DNA of 64,000 nucleotides from Phoronis australis (Eukaryota > Animalia > Phoronida): NCBI GenBank assembly GCA_002633005.1, contig NMRA01000187.1, positions 367,740 to 431,739 on the forward strand, in the 5' to 3' direction. Positions 16,113-59,265 of this stretch are shown piece after piece; position 1 is the stretch's first letter, and every line of letters starts with the position of its first letter. A program made the translations under genes and the position numbers. The notes beneath the pieces were generated by a model. The model worked only from the letters and a program-made list of their open reading frames with translations. It was not told the origin of the DNA and made no database searches.

Positions 16113-18791
<2,679 letters not shown>

Positions 18792-21242: not shown

Positions 21243-23516
<2,274 letters not shown>

Positions 23517-35396: not shown

Positions 35397-35430
35397 TGAC
35401 GTCATCTCAACTCAGCTCCGGATGACGTCA
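35397..35430. promoter_or_regulatory. Pair of perfect CRE palindromes (TGACGTCA)
   Basis: TGACGTCA at 35397-35404 and 35423-35430, both in ATGACGTCAT context. Confidence 0.45.
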
Positions 35431-38400: not shown

Positions 38401-38829
38401 AGCAGTTAGCTCCAAATATCCACATCATCCCCCTAATGGTGGTGTTGCACCCGACGGTATGAAACGTTGGAGGAAGCCTTAGGTCTTCGAATGGAGGTCA
38501 GGCAGTTACATTCATTGGTGAGACATTTTCCCAAATGAAAGAAAATCAACTTAACAGGAAAACGTGTAAAAAATTAGCATAGTCTGATCAAGTCACCAGC
38601 GTATTTATTTTTAGCATTACTACGTAAAATTTTGCTGAAATTCACTGGTATTCACAGTATTATGACACTGAGAAGCATTCGCTCTTAAAAATCCATTGTT
38701 AAAACATCAATCAATTTCCAGTAGAATTACAAGTAGTTGGTGACGTAAAAAGTCTCCACAGCTGCTCCGACTGTGTGAAAAGTTGAAGGAAGCTTTTGAT
38801 CTTCACACGGAGGTCTGGCAGTTGCCTTC

Positions 38830-39360
38830 CAAGTTAGAAAATAACATTTCTAAAGCAGAAGTCCGCCCCGTTGCACAGTGTAGTGTTGTTTGTGAATTTG
38901 TATGTCCTATGAACGAATGTCTTCGTTCAAACGTCAAACAGTGTTACGTTGGTCAAACGGTTTGCAGTCTTTCCCGTCGGTTATCTATGCATCTTCAAAA
39001 TGGTGTCATCCAAGATCATTTTCTGCAATGTCACGAACGTAAAATTACCCGTCAAGAAATTGTGGAAAACACCTCAATTCGCTACGTGGAGCACGATGTG
39101 CTGCGATTGAAAGTATTTGAGTCCTTTTTAATTGCTTTTGAGAAGCATGTTTAGAATGAGCAGCAAATATGGTCGCGCCGCACGTTACACTTGTTTGGGT
39201 GACTTTCCTGTTACCCCCTTTCATTAGTCATTCTTTGCAGTATTTCACACCCGCCTTGTCCCACTGTGTGTGTCGTCAGCTTATGCTCTGTGGTGGCATT
39301 ACTGCGTCATTTTACATTCTCTTGAGAATGAAACAAGTATGTTTCGAAATATCGTGTGTC
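38830..39360 (+). mobile_element. Penelope-like retroelement 3' remnant (GIY-YIG endonuclease fragment)
   Basis: ORF 38783-39154 has VVCEFVCP..C...CYVGQTVCSLSRRLSMH...IQDHF...LKVFESFLI, the PLE-type GIY-YIG pattern. It is followed by a hammerhead-like motif at 39322-39353. Confidence 0.8.
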
Positions 39361-39593
39361 TTTTAAGTATGTCGCTAGGTCAGTTACTTTATCTATGTTC
39401 ATTTGAGAGTAGTTTTGTTCCGAAGGTTTGAACGTAACAGAATAAAGACTGTGAGCAATAAAAAGTGTCGTGCGTTTAAACAATTCTTTATAACCGAAAA
39501 CTTGCTCCCGAAGTACAGCCAAAAAGTTAGCCTGGCAACATTTTCTCTTCAATGTGTTATTTTGATGCCGTTCATGTTTTCTATGAAACGTTT

Positions 39594-39712
39594 CTAATCC
39601 TAACCCTAACCTTAACCCTAACCCTAACCTAACTCCAAGCCCAAGCCCAACTCCAAACCCAACCCCACACTCAACCCCCACCCCAACTCTAACCCCAACC
39701 CCAACCCTACCT
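39594..39712. repeat. Degenerate telomere-like hexamer array (CCCTAA/CCCCAA)n
   Basis: About 20 hexamer units, visible directly. Confidence 0.9.
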
Positions 39713-39765
39713 ATGGGTTTCCATACACTCAGTCAACAAAGTACTGGGTTGAAATTGGACACATG

Positions 39766-40878
39766 CAGCCGATTTCATAAAGCTGGTTTCAAGTTAAACC
39801 TGGTTTAAACTGGACTTAGACCAGGTTTAAAGATAACCTGCATTTCATAAAGGTGGTTTAACTTTTAGACCAGTGGTCTAGTAAAACCTGGTTTAACCCC
39901 TGTTTAGACCTGGTCTAAGTCAGTTTTCATTTCACCAACGAAGTCTATATTCTTTAAACCTGAATTAAGATCTTAAACCATGTTTAACTTTAGACTTGGT
40001 CAGTACCAGGTTTAACTTAAATACGGTGAGACTTGCATGGTATGGGTACAACTGAATGATGCTGCGGAGTGCATTTGCGAGGCAGTTTTAGAGGGACAAT
40101 GGACTATTTTCAATATTCAGTTTTATTACTGCACCAGATCAATCGTAGCAGGGGCGGATCTAGGATTTTTAAGGGAGAAGGGCAGCCAAGGACTTTTTGA
40201 AAGAGGGCACCAAGTCAAAAATTTGATATCACTAAAATCAAGGGAAAAAGGGGCTCCGGACCCCTTGACCCCCTGGATTCGCCTATGCGTAAACCAGTAC
40301 GTGCTGGAGTGTGTCCTGCGAATTCATCAGAATACGACTGGTCGAGCAGGGCGTCATGGTCGTAAGCGCTACGGATTTGAATTAAGACAGCATCTTCTGA
40401 GTTGCACGTCCACTGTTCTCCGATTTAATGTTGCCGGGAAGGGGTCTTGCCCCCCCCTTTGACCGCGAAAAATAAGCACTAAAGTGACACGGAAATAAAT
40501 TTGGGCATTTATCATGTTACATCTAATCGTAAGCATGTTCTTTAATGTGTGTGTGTTGGGCACAGAAATTAAATTTTTCCTCATGAGAAAAGCTTTTAGA
40601 CCTTTTTCGTAACTGTCTGCACTGATTCTACTAGTGTATGCCATTGTATATTCACGTGATCAAGGTTTCATTGAAGCACTTCAATAGTTTCTTTGTTGGG
40701 TTTACCCAGCTCGACACAGTGGGGTGCCTTTAATACTTTAAACCTGGTTTTACTGAACCAGCTCCCTGGTGTAGCAAAACCAGGCTTTCAGACTCTTAAA
40801 CCATGTTGGTGAAATGCAAGTCAGATCTAAAATTAGACCAGGTTTAGGAACACCAGGTTTAAGTCTTAAAATCGGCTG
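39766..40878. mobile_element. Non-autonomous PIF/Harbinger-like element with subterminal AAACCTGGTTT/AGACCAGGTTT repeats and a nested MITE
   Basis: TIR CAGCCGATTT / AAATCGGCTG, flanked by ATG on both sides (3-bp TSD candidate). Many quasi-palindromic subterminal repeats at both ends. Confidence 0.75.
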
Positions 40879-43800
40879 ATGGAGTTTTTGCCAGTCCCCA
40901 TTGACTGAGGTAGTCACGTGCTGTCGCTCTGAGCTGGTATTTTAATATCTCCATCAGTCTGAGTGGTCTGTTGTCAAGAAACGAAGTGGAGCTACCTGCT
41001 GTTATTGATGAGGAGATGTCGGTTCTTGACGTGTTTTCCGACTGCGTTCAAATGAGGAATGCTGGTGATCATTTTGTGGCCATTAGGCCTACTGGAAGCA
41101 TTGGATTGCGATATACTGTTGAAGGATGACTGTCAGCCACGTATTCTGAACTTCTCCACTTTTGAAGGATGGCAGGCGTAGGTTTCCTTTGAGCTCTCGG
41201 CGTGGTGGTGCTCACCCAGTCGTCCACAGAAAGGACACCAAGGTTGTTACTCCTCCAGCCCAGGAAGTACATGCACCAATAAACCTCAGGACACCTCGTG
41301 TTTCGGATGTTCAGTGCATCAAAAGCAACCTCAGTGATGATGACAGCAATGTCAGTAATAGAAAGTTTCCAAAGGTCCAGCGTGTGGTGTCTGTGGAAAA
41401 CGAAGTTGAAGATGACCAAGACAGATAAGCCATCAAAGTCACACAAACGGCTGCTTGAAGAGAGAACCAATGTTGGTAGCGATATTCAGTGCATCACCAG
41501 CAAACTCAGTGACGATGATAGCAATGTGCAGTTCACTACTGTCCTGGTCTGCCAGACCCATTATACCAGGAAGAGATATCTCTTCCTGATTATACTTATC
41601 ATAATGGCCCTTTGTATCTCTCTTGTACGGAAGTGTTCTCTTCACTCGGTAAATGGTGAGCACTTGACAGGGCATGTGCAGCCTTCTCATGCAGGTTCAT
41701 ACCAGCAAATAAAATTTTCATGTCTTCATTTCTGTTAGTGAAGTGGTCCAGATGGATTCGCATTGATGTTCTGTTTTGTATTTTGAATTATCCACGTTTC
41801 TACCCCAAGCTGCAGAGCACGAAAATGACGATTGGTCAGAGCAATGAGCTATATTGCTCGTTGGTCAGAGTCTGGTATTGATGTCTGACAATAAAGAAAT
41901 TGACTTCTGCAGCGCCAGCCCAAGGTTTTTGTACGAGAATGAACGTACTTACGAGTTTGTATTCCCAAATTAGTAATCTTGGTTTAGCATTTGACAAGAT
42001 ACTTCAGAATAATAGCTATAACGTACAAACAGAATTTTGCTTTCAAAACAGCAATGTTGACTCCCAGGAACTCCGACACGTGTATTTATCGAATGTCCCC
42101 TCATTTTACTCTGATGTCTGCAATTCCTTGCCTTCTATATTATAGGCAGTCTACGTGTTGTGCTAATTTTCATTTTAGTAGCATTGCTCTAAAAGAACAC
42201 AATTTCTATTTATTTTGTTTATAAGTAAAGAAAAAAAACAGATACCATCATTGCCTAGTCCGGAATTTGCTTTCCTTTTTAATTTCGTGTACTAAAGTAC
42301 ATATTTTCAATATCAAAGAATTGACAAACAACACACACGTTTATCTTTAATCGACAAAAAAGCTTTGACCGAGGTAGACCGGTCTTACGTAAGTATTCTT
42401 AGTATCAGCAATATTTATATACAAAATGCTGGCATGATTCTGGGGGTGACATGTGTTTCAGTGTTTTTACAGAAGGCTATTCGCAGAGTATCAGAATAAT
42501 CAAGCAGTTGAGAAAACTAGCAGTGTCCTTTTATATTTATTTGAACTGTCCCTTGCTGTTTAGAGAGTGGTGAAGTAAACTGTAGAATCAGGCCTGTGTT
42601 TTCATTTTAAACACTGCATTGTCGACTCGGTCGCAAGCAGGAAATGCGGACCCACGCAGTTCACTGAATACAATGTCTAATTTATATACCGTACATGCAT
42701 GTGTATCGTGTTAGGCCGCGGTACCACGGAGAGGGCAGTAGCCTCTCCCACCTTCGGCCACAAATTATGGAAAATTCCGTTAAATCAATAAAAAACTTCG
42801 CACTGCGCAACATCTAATAGAAAAAAAAACACCGCAAAACATTATAGAAGCCACACCAACAGCGACATACAGTACATAGAGACGAATTAGATCAAAGAAA
42901 GAGCTCGATGTAGATAAAATTTCCAATTCTCCGATAAAATCCCACAACATTCTCATTCAAGAGGCACAGAATGCCTCTCAGTTCTAACAACCAAGAATGT
43001 GAGAAATAAAGATCATACAATAACATTGGCCTGAAACGCAAGAATGGAAGATTGACAAGCTTGAAAACTAGTGTATTGTTCAATAGTTCAATACACGATT
43101 GTGTCATAATGGCAAAACATATTTTCCTGAAGTATCTCCAAAGCAGTGTCTCATTTAAGGATCATTATCAGGAAAGCAATATCTAAGAGCTTTGGATTGT
43201 ACGTTCGAAACTGGCCGAGTGGATGAGTAAATTTCCGAAATAGTAATGGATATGAATTAATAATAGGTGTTCGATCTAATTCAATTTTTTTACTTTTGGA
43301 CCTACAGCCAAATTCATCAAAATTGTTGGAGCAGCACTACGGAACTTTTTTCTCTACTGACGTCATAATAATGTCGTCTGCATAACTAAGGTTGCAGATG
43401 AAACTTATATTCTCAATAGCCGTGTCCTTCGAAAATGAATTGAACAAGTTGCAAGTAGGAAACAGTCAATCACACTATCTGTTACTGAGAACCATTTACT
43501 GAATGTGAAGTTAGTCTGGTCCCCATTTTTGTGCGCCCTACATCGAACCTGGTCGCAGCGTCTTCGTGTGAGTGTAATCGCCGAAAGTTCCACATTGAAA
43601 CATTGAAATGAACAGCGACTTTTGCTAACAATTTCAGGTATGCAAACGTATGAATATTCGATTATTCAGTTTGCGTATTGTTGTTCTATAATCAAGGTCA
43701 TCTCAGGTATTGCACTGTATTCATGAATGGTGCATAAATCTTCAAAATTATTCGCTGGATATGTTTGATTGTTGCGTGACGTCAGGTGCATTGTTCAACA

Positions 43801-44318
43801 ATAACAACGTGACGCGTGATCATGCGACGTCATTGTTGCTATACAGCGTACAATTTTCATGCAACTGGGCCCTGGTTTGTAAGAATAACTAGATGATTGA
43901 GTAAATATAAGGAAGGTGCGTGGGTGTACGAGAGTGTGCGTGTGCGTGTTTGTGTGTGTGCTTCTGCTTGCTGCGTAACCTGCAAAAGACTGGACAAGCT
44001 TGTTTCAGCAAGTAGACAAGTCTGCTGCACAATTCCCATGCTGCACATGAGAAAGGGGTGTCAGTATCAGGAGACTTCGAGTGATTTCATCTTTCAACTT
44101 TTTATTATGTTTATCAGGTCAATTGGTCATTTTATCGATAGCATTAGATAGATTATGGAACTTTACCGTCTTCTCAACAAACACTACATATACGATTACA
44201 TTTCCAGTCATTAGGTGGGGAAAAGGAAAATATCCAATAAATGTCAACTCAGTGACGTTCACCCATCAGTTTTCGGGTTGATATGTGATATAGTCAGATG
44301 CACTAGATATTCAATGGC

Positions 44319-47300
44319 CTATTCTGTTTTATAGGAAAATCCAGTGCCTTCGAATTCCTTGTCAACCCATTCGCCAATCGCGTTAGTGATTGCTTCTGGC
44401 AAACCTTCCTTCCAGTCACCCACGACGCCCTTCCGAAAAAACGAGCTCTTTTCTTTGTCCATGAAGACTGCGTCCAGAGGTTGGGTACTGGGGCACTTTC
44501 TCATGTTTTCTATGGAGCTCAACGCCGCAATCGACTCCACTTCCTGTGGTGTAACCTCTTTCCCGATGAAGTGGGCGATTTTAGTGATTTCTTTCACCAG
44601 GTCTCTCTTCATGTCTTCGTAGTGTACGACTATCATAGGTTGGTTGTCTTTATGTTCCCACCATGACTTGTACAATTCAGGATATGTACCACTACCGTAG
44701 GGAAGGTCGCCCTTCATCATGCACTGCGCGAATTCCTCTAAGGTGCCTCTAAACGGTTCGTACTGCTTCATTGATGTGAAGAACGAGTACATACTCTTAA
44801 GGACATCTTTAGGGTTTCGCACCAGTAATATTATCTTCACTTTGCCTTCTTGAACCGCAGGTGGGGTCAGACTCCAATGCAAATGTGTGTTAAACACTCT
44901 GGGACTAGCCTTTTTCTTCCATCTCTCCACGAGCGCGCTATTCGACTCAGCTGGTCTTCCAGTAAACACGGTATTATCCAGCTCGAGAAATTCAATGTGG
45001 TCACTCAAGAATTCCTTTTCCAATGCTTGTTTATCGCCGTCGAGAAGCAGGAGTGAAAGAATATACTTCAACCAGTGTGTCCCTGTCTTCACGTGGGTAA
45101 CTAAAAGAACATCCGATTCGCGCATTTCCAAATTTGGAATGACTTTCGATACTCTTTCATAATCGTAGGATTTATTCCTAAATTTGATCCCTTTGTAGAC
45201 GAAGCACTGGTACTGGGGAGCCTAAAAAAACGAATGAGTTAACAAGAGTTGTAAGCGCCTCTAAACACATATGGTAAAATTTATAAAGAGAGACATGGTG
45301 TCAATTTAAGAGATTTTAAAAAATATACTGCAATACCTTTCGTAATCTCGCGAAGTCTTGCTTTTTTAGCGAGGTCCTAGCATTACTGAGCTTTATCCTG
45401 CCTTCTCAAATATGCTGCACGTCTGACCGCGGTATAAGCCCCTTCACAAACACTGACGACTGGACACAAGCTCATGGTGGGAACTCTTTAATTAACAACA
45501 AGGAGTATTTGACTCCAGAGTTCTGCTGCCAACTTCACAAATGATTCATCAAAAGTAAGTTTCAAATTCGTCTGACACGAAGAATTCTCAGCTAACATGT
45601 TTTTCTCAAGAACTGGAGTGGCCCTTTTCGCAAATGTGCAGCTTTTACAGGGAAAAACATGAGAATGATTTATTTGTTCTGGTCGTGTAAATGTCTGCAG
45701 TATCTTTAACCCTCTTTGTTAATTGGACGAAATCATTTAGTCGTCAAACAGCGGACTTGAGGATCTGGGACCCGTTCCAAGAAAACTGACTTAGCTAAGA
45801 CAAATCTTAAATTTCCGTCAATTTCAAAACAAAACTTAAAATTATCTCAAATCTGTTTCAACAAAGGAATCTTAAGTTTGACTTAATTTTTTAACTTAAG
45901 TTTTGTATTAATTTTGACTATCTTAGTGGGTGGAGAACTTTCAAAGTTTTGGATTTATTGAATCAAAACTGCTCTATTGACGAGTCCTTGAGTCAATTTG
46001 CCACGCAGGAAATGATTGAACATGATAGTTCGTGTGAAAAGTGTAGTAACAATTTCCTTTCTGATCTTAATACTGATTTCTTGCCCTCTGAAATATATGA
46101 GGCCATTGAACAATTACCTACTGGCAAGGCTGGGGGTTATGATGGCGTGATCTTTGAAATGCTGAAGTGCACAAAGGTAACGATAGTGCCAGTCTTGCAT
46201 AAGTTATTCAATGCAATTTTTGATTCTGGGTATTATCCCAAGACATGGTGTGACGCAGTGCTTACTCCAGTACATAAACAAGGCAATATCAATGACGAAA
46301 ATAACTATAGAGGTATCTCCCTGTTGTCTGCTTTGGGAAAACTTTTTACCAAACTTTTAAATAATCGTCTTTATTACTGGGCTGAAAATAATGATAAACT
46401 TTGTGAGTCTCAAGCTGGGTTTAGAAAAGGCTACTCTACGATTGACCAAGTGTTTACACTTCAAGCTATGTGCCACAAGTATTTGAGTCGGCAGGGTGGG
46501 AGATTTTACTGTGCTTTTGTAGATTTCTCGAAGGCATTCGATCGAATCCCACATAATTTACTATTCTATAGATTGAAAAACATTGATGTGCATGGTAAAA
46601 TTTTCAACATAATCCGCTCTATGTATAGTAAGTTGCGCACTTGAGTGAAAACTCAAGATGGTCTTACAGAGTTCTTTGATTGTACTGTTGGTACTCGCCA
46701 GGGTTGCATGATCAGCCCATTATTATTTGTGTTGTATCTAAATGAATTTGTGGATCAAATGAGTATGAAAAGTAATATTAATAGCACATATCTCAGCGAA
46801 CAAGTGCCAAGGGTTAACTCCCTACTGTACGCAGACGATATGGTGTTATGTTCCTCTACCGCCATCAACTTACAACGTATGCTTAATTGTTTGGCAGAAT
46901 TTTGCAAATCATGGGGCATGCAAGTAAACTTTTTTTCAGATGTATGGATTAATCAGGGTGTGGTAAATCAAGCGTATTTCTTGACTGTTTTTTCTCAACG
47001 TGTCAACGACTGTTATTTGCAAGGTTGGCAATCTGATATCGAATGTAACGCAAAACTGCCTTACTATGTGGGGTACAAAACAATATATCATCTTGAGAAT
47101 TATCCAGAAATGGTTGGTATCCGGCCACGTGTTTTTATCCAGTCTCTGACTCGATTGCGATGTTCAAATCATTCGTTACTAGTGGAAAGAGGTCGCCACA
47201 CAAATATTCCCTATGAAAACAGGTTGCGTGAATTATGTAATTCTGGGTGTGGAGAGGACGAATACCACTTTGTGTTAGTTTGTAGTGCGTACCAAGACCT

Positions 47301-47757
47301 TCGGGTTAAGTACTTAAGTGATCGTTTATGTCATTCTCCCACGACATCTAAATTTGATTCTCTCATGAGAACTCCAGATAGCATACTTATTAAATTCGTC
47401 CATCACGCTCTCAAGCGTCATAATGTATTATCCAGTTTGAAACGTGGCACCTAACAATGTTCTTGTACATGATATACTTGGGGCCTACGGCCATGTGTAT
47501 ATGTCTCAATAAAATACTAATTCAATATTTCAAGCCTCAGCGACTAAGCAGTTAAGGGGCAACATTTCGATAGTCCAGGCCAGAAAGATTGCGAGGTTGC
47601 CGACACGATACGTACACTCGCTGATCACGTAACAAGCTAAGCTTGCTCTAATATCATTAAGGGTTGCGCGACGTCTCGTTGATCAAAAGTACACAGCGTC
47701 GGTAATGACAGTTAGTAAGCCCATACTCACCAATGACTCCTCACTGCAGGTTGACAT
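44319..47757 (-). CDS. Cytosolic sulfotransferase (SULT-like), ~309 aa; exons 47731-47757, 44319-45221
   Basis: 5'-PSB-like THVKTGTHW, catalytic His in RVFNTHL, 3'-PB RNPKDVLKS, and FFRKGVVGDWK. The frame is open from the acceptor at 45221. The upstream exon MSTCSEESL|GTGAGT is in phase 0. Confidence 0.92.
45930..47525 (+). mobile_element. 5'-truncated, defective non-LTR retrotransposon (LINE ORF2 reverse transcriptase, RTE-X-like) inside the SULT intron
   Basis: NYRGISLLS, QAGFRKG, FVDFSKAFD, GTRQGC.ISP, LLYADD and C-terminal ERGRH...EDEYHF..C. There is an in-frame TGA at 46642-46644 and an apparent internal deletion near 46930. AATAAA at ~47508. The clade assignment is inference. Confidence 0.92.
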
Positions 47758-48388
47758 TTTGAGGATGATTTGGGCCAGACGAGACGTTATGCGTTGAGTG
47801 CATGCGTGTTGAGTATAGCAAAATTACGGTTGGGGGTCTTTAAGCACCACTATGTGCGCGATTGACAGTTTAAGGTAACACCCACCTCGCACAGGATTGG
47901 CAGCTCATGTTAACGCCCATATATATATTTATTCAATAACTAGGCCTCCAGCCCTTGTTACAATCAAATCGCCCTTGTTACAATCAAATCATATGAGGGT
48001 AAATAAACAATGCTTAGGTAATATTAGCAACCACGTCTCTAAGTAAGTGACCATTTCATATACTATATGCCTCTACGAACCTATTCTCCAGAATTAACAA
48101 GGTTGAACTCGTGACCTGGGTTGGTTTTAGTAGCGCAACTTTCTCGTCAGAAAAGCGAGATCACACAAGTCCTCGTGATATAACGTCAAGCATTACTCGA
48201 GTTGCACAAGTCTTGTGTCTACACGACCAGCTCCGGCCGGTGTGTGGCAAAATCTTGACCAAGTTTGCGGTACTATTGTACCACATAAACGCCAAGAAAA
48301 CAACTTAACCATTCCATGTGAATGAATAATTACTTTAAGTTCCCGATCTAAGTATTGCTTTCAAGTTATTGACGCACTGGATATTAAA

Positions 48389-49720
48389 ACAAGAGCAACG
48401 CGGACCGTTGAAATGCGCCCACGAATGCATCGCAAACGGTGTGCTTTTAGGGCTGTTTATTGGTCATAAAAATGGCCACTAGGTGGCGCAAAATACCTCG
48501 ATTCCATCCAAACACGGGAGGATAGCGTCATCTCACCAACAGATGCCTGTATTCAAAATTTTATGAAAATCCGTTGAGGAGGTAAACGTAAAATATTGCC
48601 ACCAGGGGACACACCAGTAGTCAGATCCGTCCGAAAGTCGTTGTTTATTGTCAGCATCATATAAATACACTTGTTAAATTTAGTAAAGATCCTGCAAACG
48701 GTTTAAGAGATACAGCCATGGGCAAAAAAACGAAACTGCCACTAGGAGGCGCCACAGTAGCTGGTCATCGGAAAATCATCGTCAGTCCTCCACTTCATAG
48801 TAAAAAATACATGCTAATTTTCACAATTATCCTGAAAGCGATTTGGTTGATAGAGGGTTGGACGCCAAAAAACAGACTCGAAAACGGTAAAAATGGCCAC
48901 TAGGTAGTGCAAACTCAGTCAAATGAGTCAAATCCAACGGAAAGATAGTGTCACCACACTAACAGAAGCCTATACGACAAATTTTTGAAAATACACTGAG
49001 AGCCTTTGAAGATACAGAAGTTAACGTAAAAAAATAAAATTGCTACCAGGGGGCACACCAGAAGTCAAATCCGTCCGAATGTCGTCGTCGTCCTTTGTCA
49101 ACATCATATAAATGCACTAACTAAATTTAGTAAAGATCCTGCAGACGGTTTAGGAGATAAACGGAGCCATAGGCGCAAAAATACAAAATGCCACTAGGAG
49201 GTGCCACAGTCGTCGAATTCGTCGGAAAATCATCTTCAGCCGTCCTCTTCATACTAACAACATACGTGCCAATTTTCACAATCATCCCTAGAACAGTTTG
49301 TGTGATAGAGGGGTGGACGACTAAAAACATACTTGAAAACAGTAAAAATTGCCACTAGATGGCGCAAATTACGTCGAATCTATCCGAAAACGGGTGGATA
49401 GCGGCATCTCACTAATAGATGCCTACATGCCAAATTTTATGAAAATACACTGAAGACCTTTGAAGATATAGAGGTACGCGTAAAAAAACTAAACTTGCCA
49501 CTAGGGGGCAGAACTGTAGTCGAATCTGTCTGATAGTTCGCTCATGCCGTCCCATCTATGAAAGGAACACGTGTAAAATTTCATGAACATACGTCAAACG
49601 GTTTTGGAGTTAGAGCAGTGGACGCCGGACGGACGCTGGACGGCCGGACGCCGGACGGTCGCCGCCCGGACGGACATGGCGGCATAATGCGTCCACATAT
49701 AAATATGTGGGCGCATAAAA
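48389..49720. mobile_element. Helentron/HINE-like non-autonomous element with internal tandem repeats
   Basis: Starts ACAAGAG in an A-run. Asymmetric sub-terminal IR ATGCGCCCAC (48413-48422) / GTGGGCGCAT (49707-49716). Terminal hairpin at 49687-49716. GGACG microsatellite. ~145-bp subunits in a ~440-bp higher-order repeat. Confidence 0.75.
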
Positions 49721-50292
49721 ATTCGCCGAATGCTCCACAGCAGTCAGTGGTCAGACGCTGTGACCAGCAAACGCCTAAGGACCAATTGGTACTATCTTTA
49801 AAAAACTCCGCTTCTCTCCGTAGTCAGCCGTCATCTTTCCAAACACCCTCCTTCCCCACTAATGACGTAATGTATGAAGGGTCAATTGCATCGATAGCAA
49901 ATTTGTCAAAATATTAACACTAGAAATGTCTTGTGTTATTCGTGAACATAAATAAGAATATTCATCGATTGCAGTAGTGCGTTCAACCCTGAGCAACGAT
50001 GTAATTTTGCTCGATAGTTTCTCTTTACGGGAGATTAGACGACACGAAAAGGTTCAGGTGTCAGGCTATAGCCCAGAACAGCATCGTTATTATAGAATAA
50101 ACTGCGGAATTATTATGCCTTCATAAGTTCGTAAACTGTGAACATGAGTTCGCTACTAGTCAATAAAAATTCTTGAGATAAGGAATAACACGAAATTAAC
50201 AGTATACTTTTATAGCAAATAACGTCGTACGTAATAGGTTGTGAAGCTCAAATGCACCTTTACCTTTGAAACATTATTGAACAGTGAAACTT

Positions 50293-53200
50293 TCACGTGA
50301 ATAATTCAAATGATAACAGTAAAAATTCGAACAACGTAACCATCAGAATGGAATGCAGGCGCGTGACACCGGATTGCAAATGTTCGGATTCACGTTTTTT
50401 GGTTATTGGCTTGATGCTGGTTGTTGTACTGGAAACAGAAAAAGCAGCAGATCTTTTCACAGCAGCTGTTGTTAGAGAAACTGGTTGATTACCACTGAAA
50501 CGATAACATTTGTGCGCCTGTTTTCGCGGATCATGATAGCTGAAGACTTTCACGCACGCATTCTGCAGAGAGGCTACGATTCGCTTTCGCCGAAATGATA
50601 CCGAGAAGCATGATTGGAAGCCCATGGCAATGTCGACGTAATATAGCGCCACCTGACTGCGTCCAACGTCAATTTCCATCACGTTATATCTTTGCAGAGG
50701 GATGTCTGCATCCTGCGGTCTTAGTGAAAACCCAGTAATCGCCTCAACTAACACGACACCTACTCCCGTCTTCAATATATCCGTCGACCAGTGACATATG
50801 TGTAACGTGTACGCGTACTGAGACTGGTCTTTAACATCTACTGAAAGGTGAATAGATGAGTAACTTTCTATCAACTGATGGTACGAGCCAACAATTGAAA
50901 CAACAGCAAATCCACTCCCCGTAGCCGTCACTTTGACGACGTCTGTCTCCATAGGAGCTTTTATTTTCTGCACTTCAAATCGTTTGTCTTTGCTAACGAA
51001 TCTGTGAGAACCAACCAAATTGTCTTGCTGATAAAAACGAACAGAAACAACCAAATTAGAAGTGATACTTTTGACAGAAGAAGCAAGTTCAGACAATGCA
51101 TTCAAGACAACCGCCGTGTCTGGTGTTGAGAAGAAGCCACCTCGCCCATTACTGTGATGAATCAACCATTTAGCGATGTCAAAGGCGTCGGGACCATCCC
51201 TCAAGATGGTAGTAAGCAATGCGTAGGCAGTCGTTTCAATGTCAACGGCAGATGGCATTTCGTAGACGTCACCTGCGACCTTGGTCCAGTACTTCTCACC
51301 GTCCTGCACTTTGGCCACGGAGTCTAACTTTGCAAAAGCTGCATCTTTTAATTCATTATTCACTAGATGCAGTGCATACGTAACAATAGCAGTTGTGTAA
51401 ACATCGTATACTTCACGGAAATGACGACCTAAGTAACTAGAAGCGCGCACAATAGCGTTTGTCAGGTCAACAGTTGCATTCTTGTATTCTTGAAGAGCAA
51501 TCACGACAAAAGCAGTCAACGACATTTTACTTTCAGTATGTATCCCTTGCATACTCGGGTGCAATGTCCGTCCGGGCTCTCTGAACGCCCCATCAGCCTC
51601 TTGTTGACGAAGAATCCAAACTAAAGAGTTGCTCAACAAGTGTTGGTCAACAAAGATGAAGTCACTGGCCCATAGAAAGGACTTGGTAACAAATGCAGTC
51701 AACCAGAGACTTCCACTCTTGTCAGCATTTCCAAATAAGCTGAATGAATTGTCCTTCCTAAAGAAGACCATCCGTCTTTGATAGTCCATCTCCAAATTTC
51801 CGCGAATCTTGTCTTGAATGGAAGAGAGAATTTCTGGAAATACACTCAGATAGCGTAACACGAGCGTACTGGATACAAATGTGATCAGGTTTTGTTCTCC
51901 ATACTCCGTGAGCTGGGGTGTCAATTTTTCCAAGTGTTGAAGAGTTAGTGCAAGCAAGTCGCCAGAAAGATAAACTGATGTTAGGCCTGACTGAGTCGAA
52001 GCTTCAGTTGGTAGCTCTATGTCCTTTAATGTTTTTGACACTGGATTTCCGGTTCGCAAATCCACCAGCACAGAAGTCATGGAATGCTTAAGTAAGCCTG
52101 CTGAAACCACGACAACTACTTGTTTCAGACGGCGCAAACTTATTGCTGACCTGGCTTCGACACTCAGCGTAATATTTCCAAAAACTTTGGGAATGATCCA
52201 GACATCTACAAAGTTTGCACTTTTAGGTTCAACATTTGATGTTGCAATAAATTCTTTTGAAATTCCCATATCACTCACGTCAGTAGCTTCATCGTTTTTA
52301 ACAGAGAAATCTCTTGACTTCTGCAATATAATATTAATGGTCTGAACAGAGTCAATATAGTTCATGACTGAAATCGTCAACAAAAATTGCTCATGTCTTT
52401 TTACACTTAATGGGCACTTCATAAACACATCATGGGTTCTACGAAGAGCAATTTTCGTGGGTTGGAGAACAACTCCTAAACCCCCTGACTCACTCATGGC
52501 AAACCCAAACGCTCTCCATGTCGCAGACCGGTCAGGAACATCCGCGGAATGGCAGAATCTCCCACTTTCATCAGTTCGCCCGTGCAACCACAACCACGTT
52601 TCAGAAAACAGTCTCTCATTTCTCACTTTTTCCCTTTCCATCAATGCTTCATCGTTTCTTGTGATAGGCCATTCCGCTAGAATTTCCATTTTATTTATTT
52701 CTGACAATTTATACACAGCTAAATTCGACAGGACTCGTACGCCCGCTAGTTGAAACATTTCAAGAGATTCTATTCCCAGTAGCAACGGAGGTCTTTCATC
52801 AGTTTTATGTTGTAATTGGAATTGATAGTCAATGTTTACCGAACTGATGTCAGCCACGGCATTTGGGGCGAGTTGGTCGCCAACAGCCAGTCCAACAAAT
52901 GAATGAGGTTTTGCTGTAGCGCAAACAGTAACTTGCTGGTCATGATTTTCCAAAGAAACTGTCTCCCGGTCTTCTTTATTGGCAATCTGTATGTTCACCA
53001 AATTACTACGTAAGACCACACTTGGCAGCCTCATAGAGTGACGGCTTTCTGGAAAATGTATCTTTACCGCGTTGCTGAAACATTCTACTACAAAATGTAT
53101 ACTGTCGGCAATGATTTCTTGCTGAAATTCTGTGAAGACAAGCAACTTACAAGACGGAGAATGAATACTGGTCATGTTACGCCAAATTACGTACTTTCCA

Positions 53201-56200
53201 TCTTTTAGAAAGTCTTGAGAGTTTTCAACCATGATACCTCTGCAGACAAATACGTAAGAGAAGACTTTGTCGAGCTTTGAAGAAAGCGTGACATCAAACT
53301 CTGCACTTTCGCCGCATTTTAAATCATTTGACTTCAAAGAAACATGGATAAATTCCTTATTGAGACTACGAAATTCGTCAATATACTTCAGTTCCTTCAT
53401 ATCATCCAAGCGTGCTTCTATAGCAAGCAACCCTATCAAGTGTTTAGTGTCAAATGAGAACTTTATAATGCCATTTGCGTCAACGTTTTGAAAGCTAAAG
53501 TATGCAATGGTACGAAAAAAGGAACTAGTTTCAGAGCGAATGGTTATCTGCAATCCATTCCATTCCTTATTGACAAGAGATTCATGAGCCATTTCAACAT
53601 GCAGGGATCCATAATATGTTGTATTTGGCATGTAGGCGCTCGGAGAAGAGTCAGTAAAACGAAAACGAACTTCACGCGTGTAAAGAGTGACAACTGATTC
53701 CGTCAATTCTGTAAAATCGGTTCCTATTTCACGCACTTTTACTTTAAAAACTAGCCTTGTGTTGTCAAGTATTCTTTTCCCACCAGCCCAAGTGACAAAG
53801 TCTTTATCTAAGATGGACAATTCATAATTAAACTTAAACGTATCGGAGGTATTCACAATTGGACTCAGAAACCTCAATTGCTCACTTTCAAAAGAAACAA
53901 TGATCGATATCTCGCCCTCCACGTGTTTTGCAAAATCACGGTGCGCTGAAACCGCAACAAGCAAACTGCTGCTTCCAATAAAGTGGTGAGATGGAGCAGA
54001 CAGCTTGATATGGAATACTGGTTCTACGTAATTTAAAACTGAAAAGAACTCTTTTCCATACGAACTGTCGCACACAGACGTTTTTATCATCCATTTACCT
54101 GTAACAGGTATATCCGCTAGGTGAAATTCACCAAAGAACACACCGACCGTAAATATTCTGTTAGCCAATTGTTTCATCGTGTAGCCGTTAGGTTCGATTA
54201 GTGAAACATTTAACTTACAAGACGATGAACATGGCTCCAGTGTTTCCGAATCCAGTCGGATGCACATTACTCTGTACTTTACAATTTCGGATTGTTTGTA
54301 CAACTCTTTGTCCGTCTTTATGAGCAACATGGAACGATTTCGTCGTATTTTTATCAAAGAGGAATTTGACAAACGGAACCTAATTGCTGAATTTTCTAAA
54401 GTAAATTTGACTGTTCCTTCTGCCTGGGGCTTGTCACCTGGTATGAACAAGTTAAACGTGGCCACGGTATGCATTTTTGTCATTACAGACGACGCAGTGG
54501 AAAGTGGATACAAGAATTTGGTATCTTGTAAACTGTATAATGAAACATTACACACAGAATCTGAGTCTATGGTCTTTAAAAGATGCAAGGCGATGACGCA
54601 TTCTGAGTTTGTGTAGCACACGTTTGGAACCAAAAATACATGGGGGACAACTGGGAGTTTCGAAGTTTGTTCTGTCACCGCTATGTCGTCTTGGGTTATG
54701 CGTGGATGGTCTTCTACCATACGAGGCCTTCTCACAGCTGGGAAGTAGAAAACGACGGCATGCTGACCTGGTCTTTGGGAATTGAATGCCTTCACCACAG
54801 CTCTTTGATGTCCCCGCACAATGGCTGATCGTTTGAATAAAATGCTCATACATGTCGGCTTACTTTCAATAATATTATCATGATACACTGTCGCTCGATT
54901 GCTTGCGACATCCACGTGTTTAATGTCGTCAACTGGTTTTAGTTCTATAGAGCTTCGATCTGGTTTGAAGCCAGATAGTCCATATATCTCTGTTACGCTC
55001 ATTCCAGTAATAGGAACAGCTGCAGACCACTGACATATCTGCAACGAGTACTGATATTCGGAATGGTTTTCAACGTGTACTGTCATGCGAAAAAAAGTCT
55101 GTTTGTCCTCTGCTTTGTAATTTTTCGACACAATTGATAAAGCTGCAGTCCCGTATCCTAAGCCAGCTATTTCAATGTTGTTTGTTTCCAATGGCAATTT
55201 AAAAAAATAAGTCTTCATGCTGTCGGTAAATACAAACTGATAATCACCAATCACAGTATTGTGATTGCGGCAACGAAGCTTGATGTCCATGTTGATAGAC
55301 CTGTCTATCAACATGGTCGATGATTGAGACAGTGCTTGGAGAATGACGGCGACAGCGTGGGTAGGTAACATGCTACCTTCTGCTTTCATTTGAATACTTA
55401 GCCAATTCCAGATACGAACTGCTTCCTTGTGATCTTGTCTAATGACTGATACTAGTAGTCCATATGCCGTGGTCTCTATTTCTTTGGCCGATACAGGAGC
55501 ATTGATATCGCCTGTAGACCAGTACATTTTGTTACCTTCTATTATCGCCATAGCTGTAAGTATATCATGTGCCAAGTCCATCACTGTGCTATTGGCTACG
55601 TGAAGCGCGTAGGTCGCTAATGAGATTGCATGAACGTCGTTTAGATCGTCTATTTGGTGATAAAGATAGTCAGTACACAGCTTTATGGCTTCCGCAATAC
55701 CATCTGAACCAATGTCCAAATTTTCTACTAAGGCTATCAACACATGCGCGCTGATGGCAACTCTGTCACTTTGTGCGATGATTTGAATTTCGGGATACGA
55801 AACATTTCCCGGCTCGTGGAAGAAACCATCGCTATTTTGATGCATTAAAATCCATTTTGTCGCTTTTATTAATACGTCTTCGTCGACAAATATGAATGAA
55901 CGAGCTTGGTGAAGCACCTTAGCTGTCAATGATGTTAGCCATAGATTTCCACCTCCCGTCTCCTTAAGAAGTGCACCGAAAGAGCCGTCTGGATGTCTGA
56001 CAGCAAGTTGCTGCTGATACGTAAGGGTCATCTTTCTTAAAATTGTTTTCCTTAAATCGGGACTAGTCGTTGATGATTCGTCCAGATATTTAAGTAACAA
56101 TGTGTCTGAAAAGAGTGAAATTGCATTGCGCTCTCCGAATACACGGTTAAAAGCCAATACTGTCTCCAGTGAATTTGCAACAGCGACCACGACGTCAGAG

Positions 56201-58860
56201 ACGAAAGAAGACATCTTGCCAGAATTGGTCAGGGCACCTAGCGGCACAAACTGATCTGAAGTCGATAAGTTTTGTCTCAAATCTATCAATATAATACTTA
56301 CGAAGGTCTCAAGCACCCCTTCTGGTTCGACCATTATTTTCCCTGTCACAGCATGCGACGCACTTGACGATAATGCCGTGGCTGTTAACGTTATATTACC
56401 CAGCACTTGTGGGTATATCCAAACCTTTACAGTTGCGGTCTCTCCTACTTTGATGAGTGAAGGTATTGTTATTGGCTTTGACTTCCAACGGATCTTTTGA
56501 CCTGAAGTGCCCATTTCGTCGTATCTTACAAGAAAGTCATTCGATTGCCAAAGAGAAATTTCTGCTCGCTTTTCAGATTTCTCCAGATTGGACACTGAAA
56601 TTATCAACAAAAATTCCTCTCCTTTCTTTAGAGCTTCCGGGTAATGCATCAATATTAACAGTGCTTTGCGCACATTAATTTCGTTTTTCTCAGCAATTAA
56701 ACCGAATCCCGATGTACTGCTCAAGGTGAATATGCTGAGAGTAAGGCGCGTACATTCACCTGGTGCTTTTACGATCTTACACACAATGCCGTTGTCATTC
56801 GTTGGCCCAAATATCCACAACCAATGCAGCGGAGACACTGACCAACGTGAAGTAGCGCTTTGTGAACAAAACTTCGATGGCGTCTTCCGATTTGGCTGCG
56901 TCATGACCACATAACCATCCGTTAGTATACGGAGGCCACTATTAAAAAAAATACTCCGCGAGTCCGTTAGCCACATTCTGCACAAGTCTCCATTGCTTAC
57001 CAAGGGATCGTCACCGAGAGATGTGGACGAAACTGATTTGATGAATATCGCTAGTGATTCATATGTCAAAACACTCTGATAAGTTTGGGACTCAGTTGCA
57101 AGAACTGTGACGTATGAACCTGGCTTCGCAGATACGCAGGCCAACATCTCCTCCTTTGAATACAACACATTTTTCGTTGCTCCATCGTCAGCTACAAACT
57201 TCACATAGACTGGGTTTGTTTGACTGCAGTCAACTGTAAATTCCAACATACTTGCTGCTAGCTCATCACTGATGACGAAATACGCACCAAAACTGCATTC
57301 AGGCGAATACTTGGGAGTCATCTGACGAACAACAACATATGTATCTTCCGAAAGTATTGCGCTGCTGCTTTCAACAACCTGACCACGGCAGACAAAAAGG
57401 TAGTAAAATGGCATGGTGCCCACTTTGTGCAAGACTTCTACCACAAATCTGGCCGTCTCTCCGCATGCAAAGTGTTCCACCACGGCAGATACTTGTATAG
57501 TTTGACGAGTTTCAGACGTGAACTGTTCAACGGAAAACCGTTTTGTAGTAGATTTCAGCTCAGCTAATATGATCACTAAACCCTGAAGGTCGGTGGTGTC
57601 AAACGCAAAATTGATAGTGCTACCCTCTTTTGCATCATCGGTAAAGAATGTGCGTATCCTTGGCGCTTCAGAGATATCACGTGACCGTCCTTTTAAAGTA
57701 AACTTCAAATCACCCCACTCGTTTTCTGCAAGACTTCGGTTGAGAAATTCAACTTGAAGAGCTCCAACGTATGTTGTCCCTCTCACGTAAAACGGTGGAG
57801 ACCTTTTCAAAAACTTCAGCTGCACTTCATGTTGGTGAAGACCTACAAAGGCAGTCTCCTTTTCTCTATTTCCTGTCAAATACTCTGAAACTGTAGCTAT
57901 AATTACCATGACACCTACGTCCCCAGTTTTAAATCCATTCATACAATGGGCTACAAAATCGTCTTCAATCGTGTACTCCAAGATTCCAACGAATTCCTTA
58001 CTTGAGTACACAGTAGCCATTGGGCCATTTTCTTGATAACTACGCACTGAGCATGATATTTCCACTTTGAGCGACCCCACAACCTTTGAGTCCTTTTCGT
58101 ATGTAGCAATCACCGTAACTGGAAAACCAGTATTCCCATAAACGTAGTATCTAGGCGCTTCAATTGCAACTTTGAAGAAGGTCCTTGCTAACTCTTCAAC
58201 TTTAAAAATAATTGCTTCCTCAAGAACGTAACCACATGTTGACACTCTCACTTTCCAATCGCCAGTTGTTATTGTTCCAGCCAGTTCCATTTCACCTCGT
58301 GTTACCCCTGTTACAGGCTGCATATTTATCCACTCTTTTACTTTGCATCCGTCGGGGTCAACAACAGTAACGTTCATCTTGCAAGAAACATCACACGGAA
58401 GCAGCAACTGTGTTTCTGAACGTATACAAAATACCTCAAACGTAACTATTTCCGTTGGCTGATAGACCAGCTTATCGGTTTGAATGAACGAAATCGTTGG
58501 TTGTAAAGCAATTCTGACATCAGTCGAATTGTAGAATTCAAAATCGCCACCTTTCAATCTACTTGATATCAAATAGCCTGATCCTGGAGTTGTACCCACA
58601 GGGATAACCATGAACAGTATCACGCTTGACTGGTCAGCAGGCACCAAAGTTGACGCAAACGTTATGGGGTCTGTACTGTGTCCTCGCGAATAATGAAAGG
58701 ATAGATTCCATTCCGATGTAGTTGCACGAGGCATAAATAGGTTTAAAGACGCAGTACATCTAGCACCAACATAACATGTTACTGGAATGGTCGCCATGTA
58801 GGACACAGATGACACTGTTGGAAGGATATATTTAGTGACCAACAGCGCGATAATGAACAT
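50293..58860 (-). CDS. Intronless 2855-aa double alpha-2-macroglobulin/CD109-like (TEP-family) protein lacking thioester motifs
   Basis: Each family motif occurs twice: FIQTDKLVYQP/LIKTDKELYKQ, HWLW/FSETWLW, FGERN/YGEQN, DGSFGA..LWLTS/DNSFSLFG..LWLTAFV, IETTAYGLL/IETTAYALL, TGMSVTEI..LSGF/TGVGVVLV..ITGF. Hydrophobic N-terminus, and an S/T-rich then hydrophobic C-terminus. Confidence 0.95.
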   Translation of the reverse strand: MFIIALLVTKYILPTVSSVSYMATIPVTCYVGARCTASLNLFMPRATTSEWNLSFHYSRGHSTDPITFASTLVPADQSSVILFMVIPVGTTPGSGYLISSRLKGGDFEFYNSTDVRIALQPTISFIQTDKLVYQPTEIVTFEVFCIRSETQLLLPCDVSCKMNVTVVDPDGCKVKEWINMQPVTGVTRGEMELAGTITTGDWKVRVSTCGYVLEEAIIFKVEELARTFFKVAIEAPRYYVYGNTGFPVTVIATYEKDSKVVGSLKVEISCSVRSYQENGPMATVYSSKEFVGILEYTIEDDFVAHCMNGFKTGDVGVMVIIATVSEYLTGNREKETAFVGLHQHEVQLKFLKRSPPFYVRGTTYVGALQVEFLNRSLAENEWGDLKFTLKGRSRDISEAPRIRTFFTDDAKEGSTINFAFDTTDLQGLVIILAELKSTTKRFSVEQFTSETRQTIQVSAVVEHFACGETARFVVEVLHKVGTMPFYYLFVCRGQVVESSSAILSEDTYVVVRQMTPKYSPECSFGAYFVISDELAASMLEFTVDCSQTNPVYVKFVADDGATKNVLYSKEEMLACVSAKPGSYVTVLATESQTYQSVLTYESLAIFIKSVSSTSLGDDPLVSNGDLCRMWLTDSRSIFFNSGLRILTDGYVVMTQPNRKTPSKFCSQSATSRWSVSPLHWLWIFGPTNDNGIVCKIVKAPGECTRLTLSIFTLSSTSGFGLIAEKNEINVRKALLILMHYPEALKKGEEFLLIISVSNLEKSEKRAEISLWQSNDFLVRYDEMGTSGQKIRWKSKPITIPSLIKVGETATVKVWIYPQVLGNITLTATALSSSASHAVTGKIMVEPEGVLETFVSIILIDLRQNLSTSDQFVPLGALTNSGKMSSFVSDVVVAVANSLETVLAFNRVFGERNAISLFSDTLLLKYLDESSTTSPDLRKTILRKMTLTYQQQLAVRHPDGSFGALLKETGGGNLWLTSLTAKVLHQARSFIFVDEDVLIKATKWILMHQNSDGFFHEPGNVSYPEIQIIAQSDRVAISAHVLIALVENLDIGSDGIAEAIKLCTDYLYHQIDDLNDVHAISLATYALHVANSTVMDLAHDILTAMAIIEGNKMYWSTGDINAPVSAKEIETTAYGLLVSVIRQDHKEAVRIWNWLSIQMKAEGSMLPTHAVAVILQALSQSSTMLIDRSINMDIKLRCRNHNTVIGDYQFVFTDSMKTYFFKLPLETNNIEIAGLGYGTAALSIVSKNYKAEDKQTFFRMTVHVENHSEYQYSLQICQWSAAVPITGMSVTEIYGLSGFKPDRSSIELKPVDDIKHVDVASNRATVYHDNIIESKPTCMSILFKRSAIVRGHQRAVVKAFNSQRPGQHAVVFYFPAVRRPRMVEDHPRITQDDIAVTEQTSKLPVVPHVFLVPNVCYTNSECVIALHLLKTIDSDSVCNVSLYSLQDTKFLYPLSTASSVMTKMHTVATFNLFIPGDKPQAEGTVKFTLENSAIRFRLSNSSLIKIRRNRSMLLIKTDKELYKQSEIVKYRVMCIRLDSETLEPCSSSCKLNVSLIEPNGYTMKQLANRIFTVGVFFGEFHLADIPVTGKWMIKTSVCDSSYGKEFFSVLNYVEPVFHIKLSAPSHHFIGSSSLLVAVSAHRDFAKHVEGEISIIVSFESEQLRFLSPIVNTSDTFKFNYELSILDKDFVTWAGGKRILDNTRLVFKVKVREIGTDFTELTESVVTLYTREVRFRFTDSSPSAYMPNTTYYGSLHVEMAHESLVNKEWNGLQITIRSETSSFFRTIAYFSFQNVDANGIIKFSFDTKHLIGLLAIEARLDDMKELKYIDEFRSLNKEFIHVSLKSNDLKCGESAEFDVTLSSKLDKVFSYVFVCRGIMVENSQDFLKDGKYVIWRNMTSIHSPSCKLLVFTEFQQEIIADSIHFVVECFSNAVKIHFPESRHSMRLPSVVLRSNLVNIQIANKEDRETVSLENHDQQVTVCATAKPHSFVGLAVGDQLAPNAVADISSVNIDYQFQLQHKTDERPPLLLGIESLEMFQLAGVRVLSNLAVYKLSEINKMEILAEWPITRNDEALMEREKVRNERLFSETWLWLHGRTDESGRFCHSADVPDRSATWRAFGFAMSESGGLGVVLQPTKIALRRTHDVFMKCPLSVKRHEQFLLTISVMNYIDSVQTINIILQKSRDFSVKNDEATDVSDMGISKEFIATSNVEPKSANFVDVWIIPKVFGNITLSVEARSAISLRRLKQVVVVVSAGLLKHSMTSVLVDLRTGNPVSKTLKDIELPTEASTQSGLTSVYLSGDLLALTLQHLEKLTPQLTEYGEQNLITFVSSTLVLRYLSVFPEILSSIQDKIRGNLEMDYQRRMVFFRKDNSFSLFGNADKSGSLWLTAFVTKSFLWASDFIFVDQHLLSNSLVWILRQQEADGAFREPGRTLHPSMQGIHTESKMSLTAFVVIALQEYKNATVDLTNAIVRASSYLGRHFREVYDVYTTAIVTYALHLVNNELKDAAFAKLDSVAKVQDGEKYWTKVAGDVYEMPSAVDIETTAYALLTTILRDGPDAFDIAKWLIHHSNGRGGFFSTPDTAVVLNALSELASSVKSITSNLVVSVRFYQQDNLVGSHRFVSKDKRFEVQKIKAPMETDVVKVTATGSGFAVVSIVGSYHQLIESYSSIHLSVDVKDQSQYAYTLHICHWSTDILKTGVGVVLVEAITGFSLRPQDADIPLQRYNVMEIDVGRSQVALYYVDIAMGFQSCFSVSFRRKRIVASLQNACVKVFSYHDPRKQAHKCYRFSGNQPVSLTTAAVKRSAAFSVSSTTTSIKPITKKRESEHLQSGVTRLHSILMVTLFEFLLLSFELFT

Positions 58861-59110
58861 TGTCGTACGATGATCACTTTCTGGAAAGGATTGCGTCAGA
58901 TATGCTTCTAATTCGTGGCACGCGACAGTGCTCGTGAAACTGAATGCCTCTCGTGATTTTTTCCGTCGTTGTCACGAGCATCATCAATTGTTGATTAATT
59001 ATTTAATACTTCGGTCCATGTTTACTTAAAAGCAATGCTTTGATCAATTCACATAGGAATAGGAAGGTTTGCCTCATTTTTTGCGCATTTTGACATGGCA
59101 CCGATTTTCA

Positions 59111-59265
59111 TAGCCAGCCAGATAGCTGTAAGAAGACTACGGTCAAAATACAGCTAGGTACCACTGAGTGTTTTTCTTCCGTAGACCTAGCCAGCCAGCT
59201 AGCTGTATGAAGATTGTCGTCAAAATAAAGCTAGGTACCACTGTGTGCATTTCTTCCGTAGACCC
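59111..59265. repeat. ~77-bp tandem duplication
   Basis: TAGCCAGCCAG.TAGCTGTA...AGCTAGGTACCACTG...TTTCTTCCGTAGACC occurs twice. Confidence 0.85.

Follow-up and report, generated by a model that had tools for sequence, protein, structure and literature searches.

A stretch of 64,000 nucleotides (nt) from the phoronid Phoronis australis (assembly GCA_002633005.1, contig NMRA01000187.1, positions 367,740 to 431,739 of the forward strand), hereafter the window, contains a gene for a double thioester-containing protein (TEP) of the CD109-like type, together with calmodulin, Rho-like, 7B2 and sulfotransferase (SULT) genes. The TEP gene (P0001) occupies positions 50293..58860 of the minus strand and encodes, in a single-exon coding sequence (CDS), one chain of 2855 amino acids (aa) with two complete modules. 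P0001 belongs to a known family, within which it represents a new variant: the gene is real and expressed, its origin is partly supported, and a function can be proposed by analogy.

Layout and expression of the double TEP gene

The open reading frame (ORF) runs from ATG to stop over positions 58860-50293 of the minus strand without any internal stop. Measured from stop to stop, the same frame spans 58971..50293, while the second-longest such frame of the window reaches only 300 aa. At 42% GC, 2855 codons without a stop would arise by chance with a probability of about 1e-76. The GC content at third codon positions (GC3) of the TEP gene is about 0.40, close to that of the window as a whole. 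A first-pass annotation made from the sequence had described one unbroken TEP ORF of about 8.6 kb at 50293..58883. The stop-free frame and the lack of detected splicing in RNA confirm the uninterrupted ORF, but not 58883 as its start, which lies 23 nt above the ATG at 58860 inside a tract that resembles a splice acceptor. This tract consists of a branch-like CTGAC, then pyrimidines, then a CAG that ends at 58881. It predicts a 3' splice site (58881..58899, minus strand) 20 nt upstream of the ATG, with a possible intron in the 5' untranslated region (UTR); sense depth at 58871 is 0-1.

The TEP/alpha-macroglobulin domain plan (MG1-8, CUB, TED) is present in both modules, and the Pfam domains MG2, A2M_BRD, A2M, TED and A2M_recep are each matched twice in P0001; MG3 is matched in module 2 alone. 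All parts of the chain lie on the minus strand. A signal-peptide-like N-terminus (aa 1-18; 58807..58860), recognized by inspection of hydropathy and position, is followed by module 1 (aa 19-1374; 54739..58806) with MG1-MG7, CUB, TED and MG8, and by a hydrophilic linker of 29 aa (aa 1375-1403; 54652..54738). Module 2 (aa 1404-2787; 50500..54651) is likewise complete and has a low-confidence insertion of ~25 aa in MG6. The chain ends with a Ser/Thr-rich stalk and a terminal hydrophobic tail without cytoplasmic part (50296..50499), which by inspection resembles a glycosylphosphatidylinositol (GPI) signal. Checking the ends of both modules bears out the earlier proposal that the upstream copy has no anchor tail and the downstream copy no signal peptide. 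Across 1401 aligned columns, the two modules are 29% identical.

Three raw RNA runs (X5, X6 and X7) with the same species label as the window and two runs of DNA contigs (X1 and X2) were compared with the locus. In X5 and X6, sense-strand depth was found in 30 of 30 bins across 49900-59090, at about 1-19 fold inside the CDS. Reads placed on the TEP region numbered 843 in X5 and 727 in X6, of which just 8 and 21 were partial fits, and the rows listed for the TEP CDS in these two runs include no splice joint, with 3 more loose-end rows beyond those listed. The TEP gene is transcribed without detectable splicing in its coding stretch. Zero reads fell on the ORF in X7, a silence that suggests tissue- or stage-specific expression.

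The linker deserves particular attention, as the contigs of X1 and X2 break there. Together with the silence of X7, this interruption would fit an assembly artefact or a decaying pseudogene. However, a contig of 132 nt overlaps both flanking contigs across the gap, RNA depth at 54736 within the linker is 13 in X5 and 9 in X6 (both strands summed), and 4 of 9 X6 reads carry at this position a 9-nt insertion, the sole indel listed, which preserves the frame when read by hand. The modules share only 29% identity and are therefore not a collapsed or doubled repeat. Furthermore, 17 of the 35 listed coding single nucleotide polymorphisms (SNPs) are synonymous versus 23-28% expected (P about 0.01), namely 7/11 in module 1 and 10/20 in module 2, the 4 SNPs of the stalk and tail being all non-synonymous; such an excess argues against a pseudogene. 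An artefact or pseudogene is thus scarcely credible, and we regard this explanation as already largely refuted.

Antisense transcription was also seen at the locus. A plus-strand block at ~50400..52250 (limits approximate) covers the 3' end of the CDS, that is the TED/MG8 part of module 2, at a depth of about 15-35 vs ~5-19 for sense; this amounts to two to three times the sense depth in both X5 and X6, and the block is absent in X7. RNA loose ends and splice sites additionally define a GT-AG intron of 18.9 kb (35565..54488, plus strand) in an antisense, apparently non-coding transcript. Its joint, 35564 -> 54489, is present in ten RNA reads (3 in X5 and 7 in X6) whose loose end is identical to 35534-35560. 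The intron reaches across SULT and a long interspersed nuclear element (LINE) into the TEP CDS, whose 3' half it includes, and its acceptor lies inside module 2. The upstream exon (35400-35564, plus strand) and 7B2 face each other head to head, close to two TGACGTCA (cAMP response element, CRE-like) motifs at ~35398 and 35424. No long ORF crosses the joint of the two exons.

Lost thioesters and predicted fold

The thioester motif CGEQ is lost in both modules, being replaced by FGER in module 1 (56122..56145, minus strand) and by YGEQ in module 2 (51886..51909, minus strand). It is retained by 144 of the 150 top relatives among the 3344 matches to module 2. This double loss, which the first-pass annotation did not raise, matters most for function: with the cysteine missing, the covalent protease trap would be dismantled in this protein, which excludes trapping in its covalent form. 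The bait spans measure 28 aa (module 1) and 42 aa (module 2), versus 43-69 aa in 11 relatives. Neither module has an RxxR at its CUB-MG8 junction, unlike human CD109 with its furin site freeing MG8. An RRPR does occur at the start of the linker (aa 1377-1380), and five further RxxR motifs are found elsewhere in the chain. Ten cysteine columns are common to both modules and present in 0 of 48 other TEPs; a Pfam search at an E-value of 0.01 gave no LDLa match in P0001. The thioester cysteine is replaced by an aromatic residue in both modules, and the new cysteines are common to the two, so that these changes appear to predate the duplication.

For each module, the first ~1190 aa were modelled with AlphaFold from alignments of 36 rows, and the two models reached a predicted local distance difference test score (pLDDT) of 77 and 79. 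Their template modelling (TM) scores are 0.81 and 0.82 against native CD109 (8S3O) vs 0.52-0.55 against activated CD109, and a low-confidence loop lies at the bait position in both models.

Relatives, neighbourhood and origin

Human CD109 is the best sequence match in the PDB for both modules. A library-wide phmmer search with module 2 yielded 3344 matches, of which the top 150, at 25-34% identity and with molluscan CD109-like proteins first, contain no orthologue. A word search with the whole protein over proteins of 1570-4997 aa gave 18 weak, single-module matches, and an Atlas search returned generic TEP clusters only. The main tree was based on an iterated alignment of 50 rows picked from about 200 fetched. 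Modules 1 and 2 are sisters in this analysis (FastTree support 1.0, IQ-TREE SH-aLRT 100), as the first-pass annotation had supposed, and they have 51 private shared residues, whereas no other pairing exceeds 24. Contrary to this, a quick alignment of 123 rows placed the long-branch sequence P0004 between the modules with a support of 0.82; the iterated alignment rejected that placement, and a grouping of module 1 with P0004 was rejected by the approximately unbiased (AU) test (p 0.019). In the best trees both modules fall inside the CD109/iTEP grade without a supported sister group. Grouping with the A2M clade is rejected (AU p 0.030) and grouping with the molluscan CD109 set is borderline (p 0.049), both from fast searches.

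Some echinoderm TEPs showed a different kind of extension. P0133 (Anneissia japonica) and the sea urchin proteins P0236 and P0237 carry long C-terminal series of thyroglobulin, WAP, EGF and other protease-inhibitor-type repeats, including antistasin and Kunitz repeats in P0133, and some are named 'fibrillin-like'.

Metazoan TEP genes are usually rich in exons, as the first-pass annotation stated. For Biomphalaria, 35-43 exons are reported, a number described as agreeing with bivalve and human genes, and for Anopheles and Drosophila 11-15 (PMC7016707). P0001 thus shows the mark of a retrogene, an intronless CDS set against intron-bearing homologues. We think it probable, though not strongly so, that the coding introns were lost by a putative retroposition, the simplest scenario being a single cDNA-mediated loss ahead of the doubling. 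A retrocopy of 4.3 kb is easier to obtain than one of 8.6 kb, and a continuous CDS behind a 5' UTR intron is typical of old retrogenes. The data fit both orders of events, retroposition followed by duplication or fusion followed by retroposition or intron loss, which cannot be told apart. In the scenario that we propose, an ancestral CD109/iTEP paralogue would have exchanged its thioester cysteine for an aromatic residue and gained new cysteines; all coding introns would next have gone at once, most likely via retroposition; the intronless copy would have undergone a head-to-tail duplication with fusion, in which the tail of the first half and the signal peptide of the second were lost; and the halves would afterwards have diverged to their present 29% identity.

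Alternatively, the introns may have been lost in place, or the TEPs of this lineage may be generally intron-poor, in which case an ordinary tandem duplication with fusion would suffice. The neighbouring genes bear on this question. The first-pass annotation had contrasted the TEP gene with intron-rich neighbours, and this contrast stands for calmodulin (at least 4 coding exons in each of two genes, and a third gene partly seen), for 7B2, which is split into several exons, and for the Rho-like gene with its 3 coding exons. It fails for the nearest gene, SULT, which likewise has one large coding exon of 900 nt behind a splice acceptor; intron loss may therefore be common here, which counts against our scenario. 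The small number of exons in the Rho-like gene and the already reduced number in insect TEPs (11-15; PMC7016707) agree with loss without retroposition. So do the lack of a poly(A) remnant or a target-site duplication longer than 9 nt around the TEP gene, where only 9-nt chance matches were found, and the lack of a visible parent, as no second contig of X1 or X2 reaches 90% identity to the TEP gene. Matches of 18-21 nt in other X1 and X2 contigs were not collinear with the gene and were regarded as chance. Missing insertion marks are, however, expected for an old event and therefore prove nothing. The introns retained in the nearby calmodulin and 7B2 genes speak against general loss, a drop from 35-43 exons to a single one, spanning 4.2 kb in each module, would most simply be a single cDNA-mediated event, and the candidate 5' UTR intron before a continuous CDS is as in old retrogenes. 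Loss without retroposition is consequently a serious possibility, but one that we tend to doubt. Horizontal transfer from prokaryotic CD109-like TEPs, which occur in metagenome and bacterial records, would directly explain the missing introns. The first-pass annotation held transfer to be less likely on account of animal-type motifs. The modules indeed appear to be of the animal CD109/iTEP type and are not bacterial A2M (no bMG match in Pfam and no bacterial A2M among the PDB matches listed), but such motifs alone do not exclude transfer, and a tree with both modules forced to the putative-prokaryote side is not rejected (AU p 0.40-0.44). Yet this forced tree leaves the modules basal to all animal TEPs and not nested among the prokaryotic rows (P0033, P0142 and P0043, whose prokaryotic origin we infer, as it is not given by the source), whereas the best tree sets them among CD109/iTEP. 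Of 29 diagnostic sites, 13-14 show the animal residue in these modules and two the prokaryotic one, and the best putative prokaryotic matches rank only 54th of 207 and 89th of 204. The GPI-like tail and a GC3 near the window GC also argue against transfer, which we consider very improbable.

Several other features of the window were noted. The SULT gene (PF00685; 44319-45221, minus strand) has a GC3 of 0.54 vs 0.40 for the TEP gene and is a possible second retro-derived gene. Between SULT and TEP lies a broken LINE-type reverse transcriptase (45895-47454, plus strand) with an in-frame stop at 46642-46644. The calmodulin and calmodulin-like genes form a cluster (1573-2550, 16120-17810 and 21250-23030, minus strand) with the same exon layout; two of them differ at few residues and the third is more divergent. 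The frame of the Rho-family GTPase (25927-27949, plus strand) ends in ...RSCVRSQ instead of a standard CAAX box. Immediately upstream of the TEP gene, 59111-60650 is a high-copy interspersed repeat made of two tandem copies of ~700 nt (85% identical) and two copies of 77 nt, with a summed contig depth more than 1000x the single-copy level, and just downstream, 48467-49616 resembles a dispersed-repeat array of two to three units of ~450 nt. A tandem duplication of ~2.9 kb at 94-96% identity, without recognized gene, occupies 7480-12770. A short telomere-like (CCCTAA)n tract at ~39600-39710 stands beside a region rich in imperfect inverted repeats (39790-40830), possibly the ends of a DNA transposon; repeats of this kind, seen near 39610, are a weak hint of a lineage outside both arthropods and nematodes.

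Possible functions and comparison with known systems

Trapping by CD109 is described as bait cleavage, thioester conjugation and release from furin-cut MG8, and CD109 itself as furin-processed and shed (PMC12927315). The same source reports that monomeric alpha-macroglobulins such as CD109 inhibit proteases only with thioester conjugation, and tetramers without it. Since monomeric inhibition requires conjugation and both thioesters are lost, neither module of P0001 alone can inhibit. By analogy with the thioester-less MCR, we favour a rigid two-body scaffold for binding or as a barrier. The chain would be secreted, carry a GPI anchor and fold into two serially arranged bodies that each resemble native CD109. 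Disulfides formed by the new cysteines would make the MG rings stiffer, and the two divergent modules would bind ligands, microbes or a neighbouring membrane through avidity. Taken as a whole, the reading of this transcribed single-coding-exon gene as encoding two complete thioester-less CD109-like modules in a probably GPI-anchored, non-covalent cell-surface binding or scaffold protein, rather than a covalent protease trap, seems to us evenly balanced between right and wrong.

A number of observations weigh against it. The function is proposed from losses and from analogy. Both the signal peptide and the GPI signal were judged by eye only, and two Glu lie within the tail. The native-like pose of the AlphaFold models may reflect the training set, and the models are without the CUB end and MG8. 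On the side of transcription, the depth at the linker counts antisense reads too, short reads cannot show one full-length transcript, and five X5 molecules start at 54857, just within module 1. The SNP count covers the 35 listed coding SNPs, with about 80 further rows beyond these.

Two other functions can be envisaged. Fusion may have replaced the thioester, so that the chain would act as a single-chain cage of two subunits that encloses a bait-cutting protease non-covalently between the modules, like multimeric A2M or ovostatin. Tetrameric alpha-macroglobulins are reported to need no conjugation (PMC12927315), chicken ovostatin is reported as a tetramer without CGEQ (PMC12874980), and dimeric inhibitors are known (PMC9156758; PMC12939704). 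A low-confidence loop is kept at the bait position in both modules of P0001, and thioester loss appears earlier than the doubling. On the other hand, the bait spans are short, particularly the 28 aa of module 1, the MG8-to-MG1 linker of 29 aa may prevent a face-to-face arrangement, and the added cysteines would tend to make the MG ring more rigid. We therefore find such a cage unlikely, and a shade more doubtful is the fuller version of a membrane-anchored cage, in which a CD109-like retrogene that had lost its thioester would have regained protease trapping by fusing two copies. Rather less probable still is a polyprotein, in which a proprotein convertase would cut the linker at RRPR and leave module 1 soluble and module 2 anchored, the fusion only enforcing 1:1 co-expression. 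The position of RRPR at the linker start, its intact state in the insertion allele and the processing and shedding of CD109 itself (PMC12927315) would agree with cleavage. However, no orthologue was found against which to gauge conservation of RRPR, five other RxxR motifs occur in the chain, and RRPR satisfies just the minimal RxxR rule. The rigid scaffold thus remains the function that we favour.

To place P0001 among other long TEP predictions, a chiton CD109 query was compared with proteins longer than 2530 aa. Of 34 matches, 29 contain two or more TEP modules, whether whole or partial, and 27 of these 29 keep at least one CGEQ. A strongly hydrophobic stretch resembling a signal or GPI signal is present at 5 of 17 junctions (Solemya, Anopheles cruzii, Hyla, Danionella and Pomacea) and absent from the other 12; from these stretches, we read the five models as merged neighbouring genes. 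Double TEPs are thus frequent among predicted proteins, and part of them may be genuine. The CDS of P0001 has no intron for a predictor to join over and so cannot be a gene-prediction merge; with its one exon and RNA support it is a tandem double macroglobulin that such a merge does not explain. A macroglobulin body of ~1400 aa can consequently be chained MG8 to MG1, and there may accordingly be genuine cases among the 29 multi-module models in the databases.

In the literature searched, mostly outside subscription journals, we found no description of an intronless, retroposed or single-chain double TEP/CD109 gene. If retroposition is correct, the coding exon of P0001 would be uncommonly long for one of retro origin, in a gene family with 35-43 exons; if the cage were correct, one polypeptide would do what A2M and ovostatin achieve with separate subunits. 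P0001 also provides a natural experiment on two questions: whether a protease can be trapped by a tethered pair of units without thioesters, and which roles CD109-like proteins lacking the thioester have in invertebrates.

The closest known systems differ from P0001 in distinct ways. The multi-module models (e.g., Solemya KAL5012796.1, Anopheles cruzii XP_052864269.1, Hyla XP_056419557.1 and many fish A2M) resemble it in that each predicted chain, of 2500-4900 aa, includes at least two TEP modules, but they mostly keep CGEQ, whereas P0001 combines a single exon and RNA support with the loss of both thioesters. The best matches in sequence and structure are human CD109 (PDB 8S3O native, 9FX2/9FX3 activated) and the molluscan CD109/iTEP-like proteins (Liolophura XP_064609639.1, Mya XP_052770025.1 and Mercenaria), which share its domain order and, as judged by inspection, its signal-like start and GPI-like tail. 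Compared with these, P0001 has two modules, no thioester, no RxxR before MG8, a short bait, 10 private cysteines and only 25-29% identity over the full length, and its single coding exon contrasts with the 35-43 exons reported for the Biomphalaria TEPs (PMC7016707). MCR/TEP6 is described as having a mutated thioester, as does P0001, and a membrane anchor (PMC7016707), as predicted for P0001; it has, however, one module with an LDLa at the bait position, while P0001 has two modules and no LDLa, and our trees were built without a named MCR row. Finally, chicken ovostatin and tetrameric A2M also bring several macroglobulin units together, ovostatin reportedly without CGEQ (PMC12874980) like P0001, but they are soluble oligomers of separate chains, whereas P0001 is one chain for which a grouping with the A2M clade is rejected.

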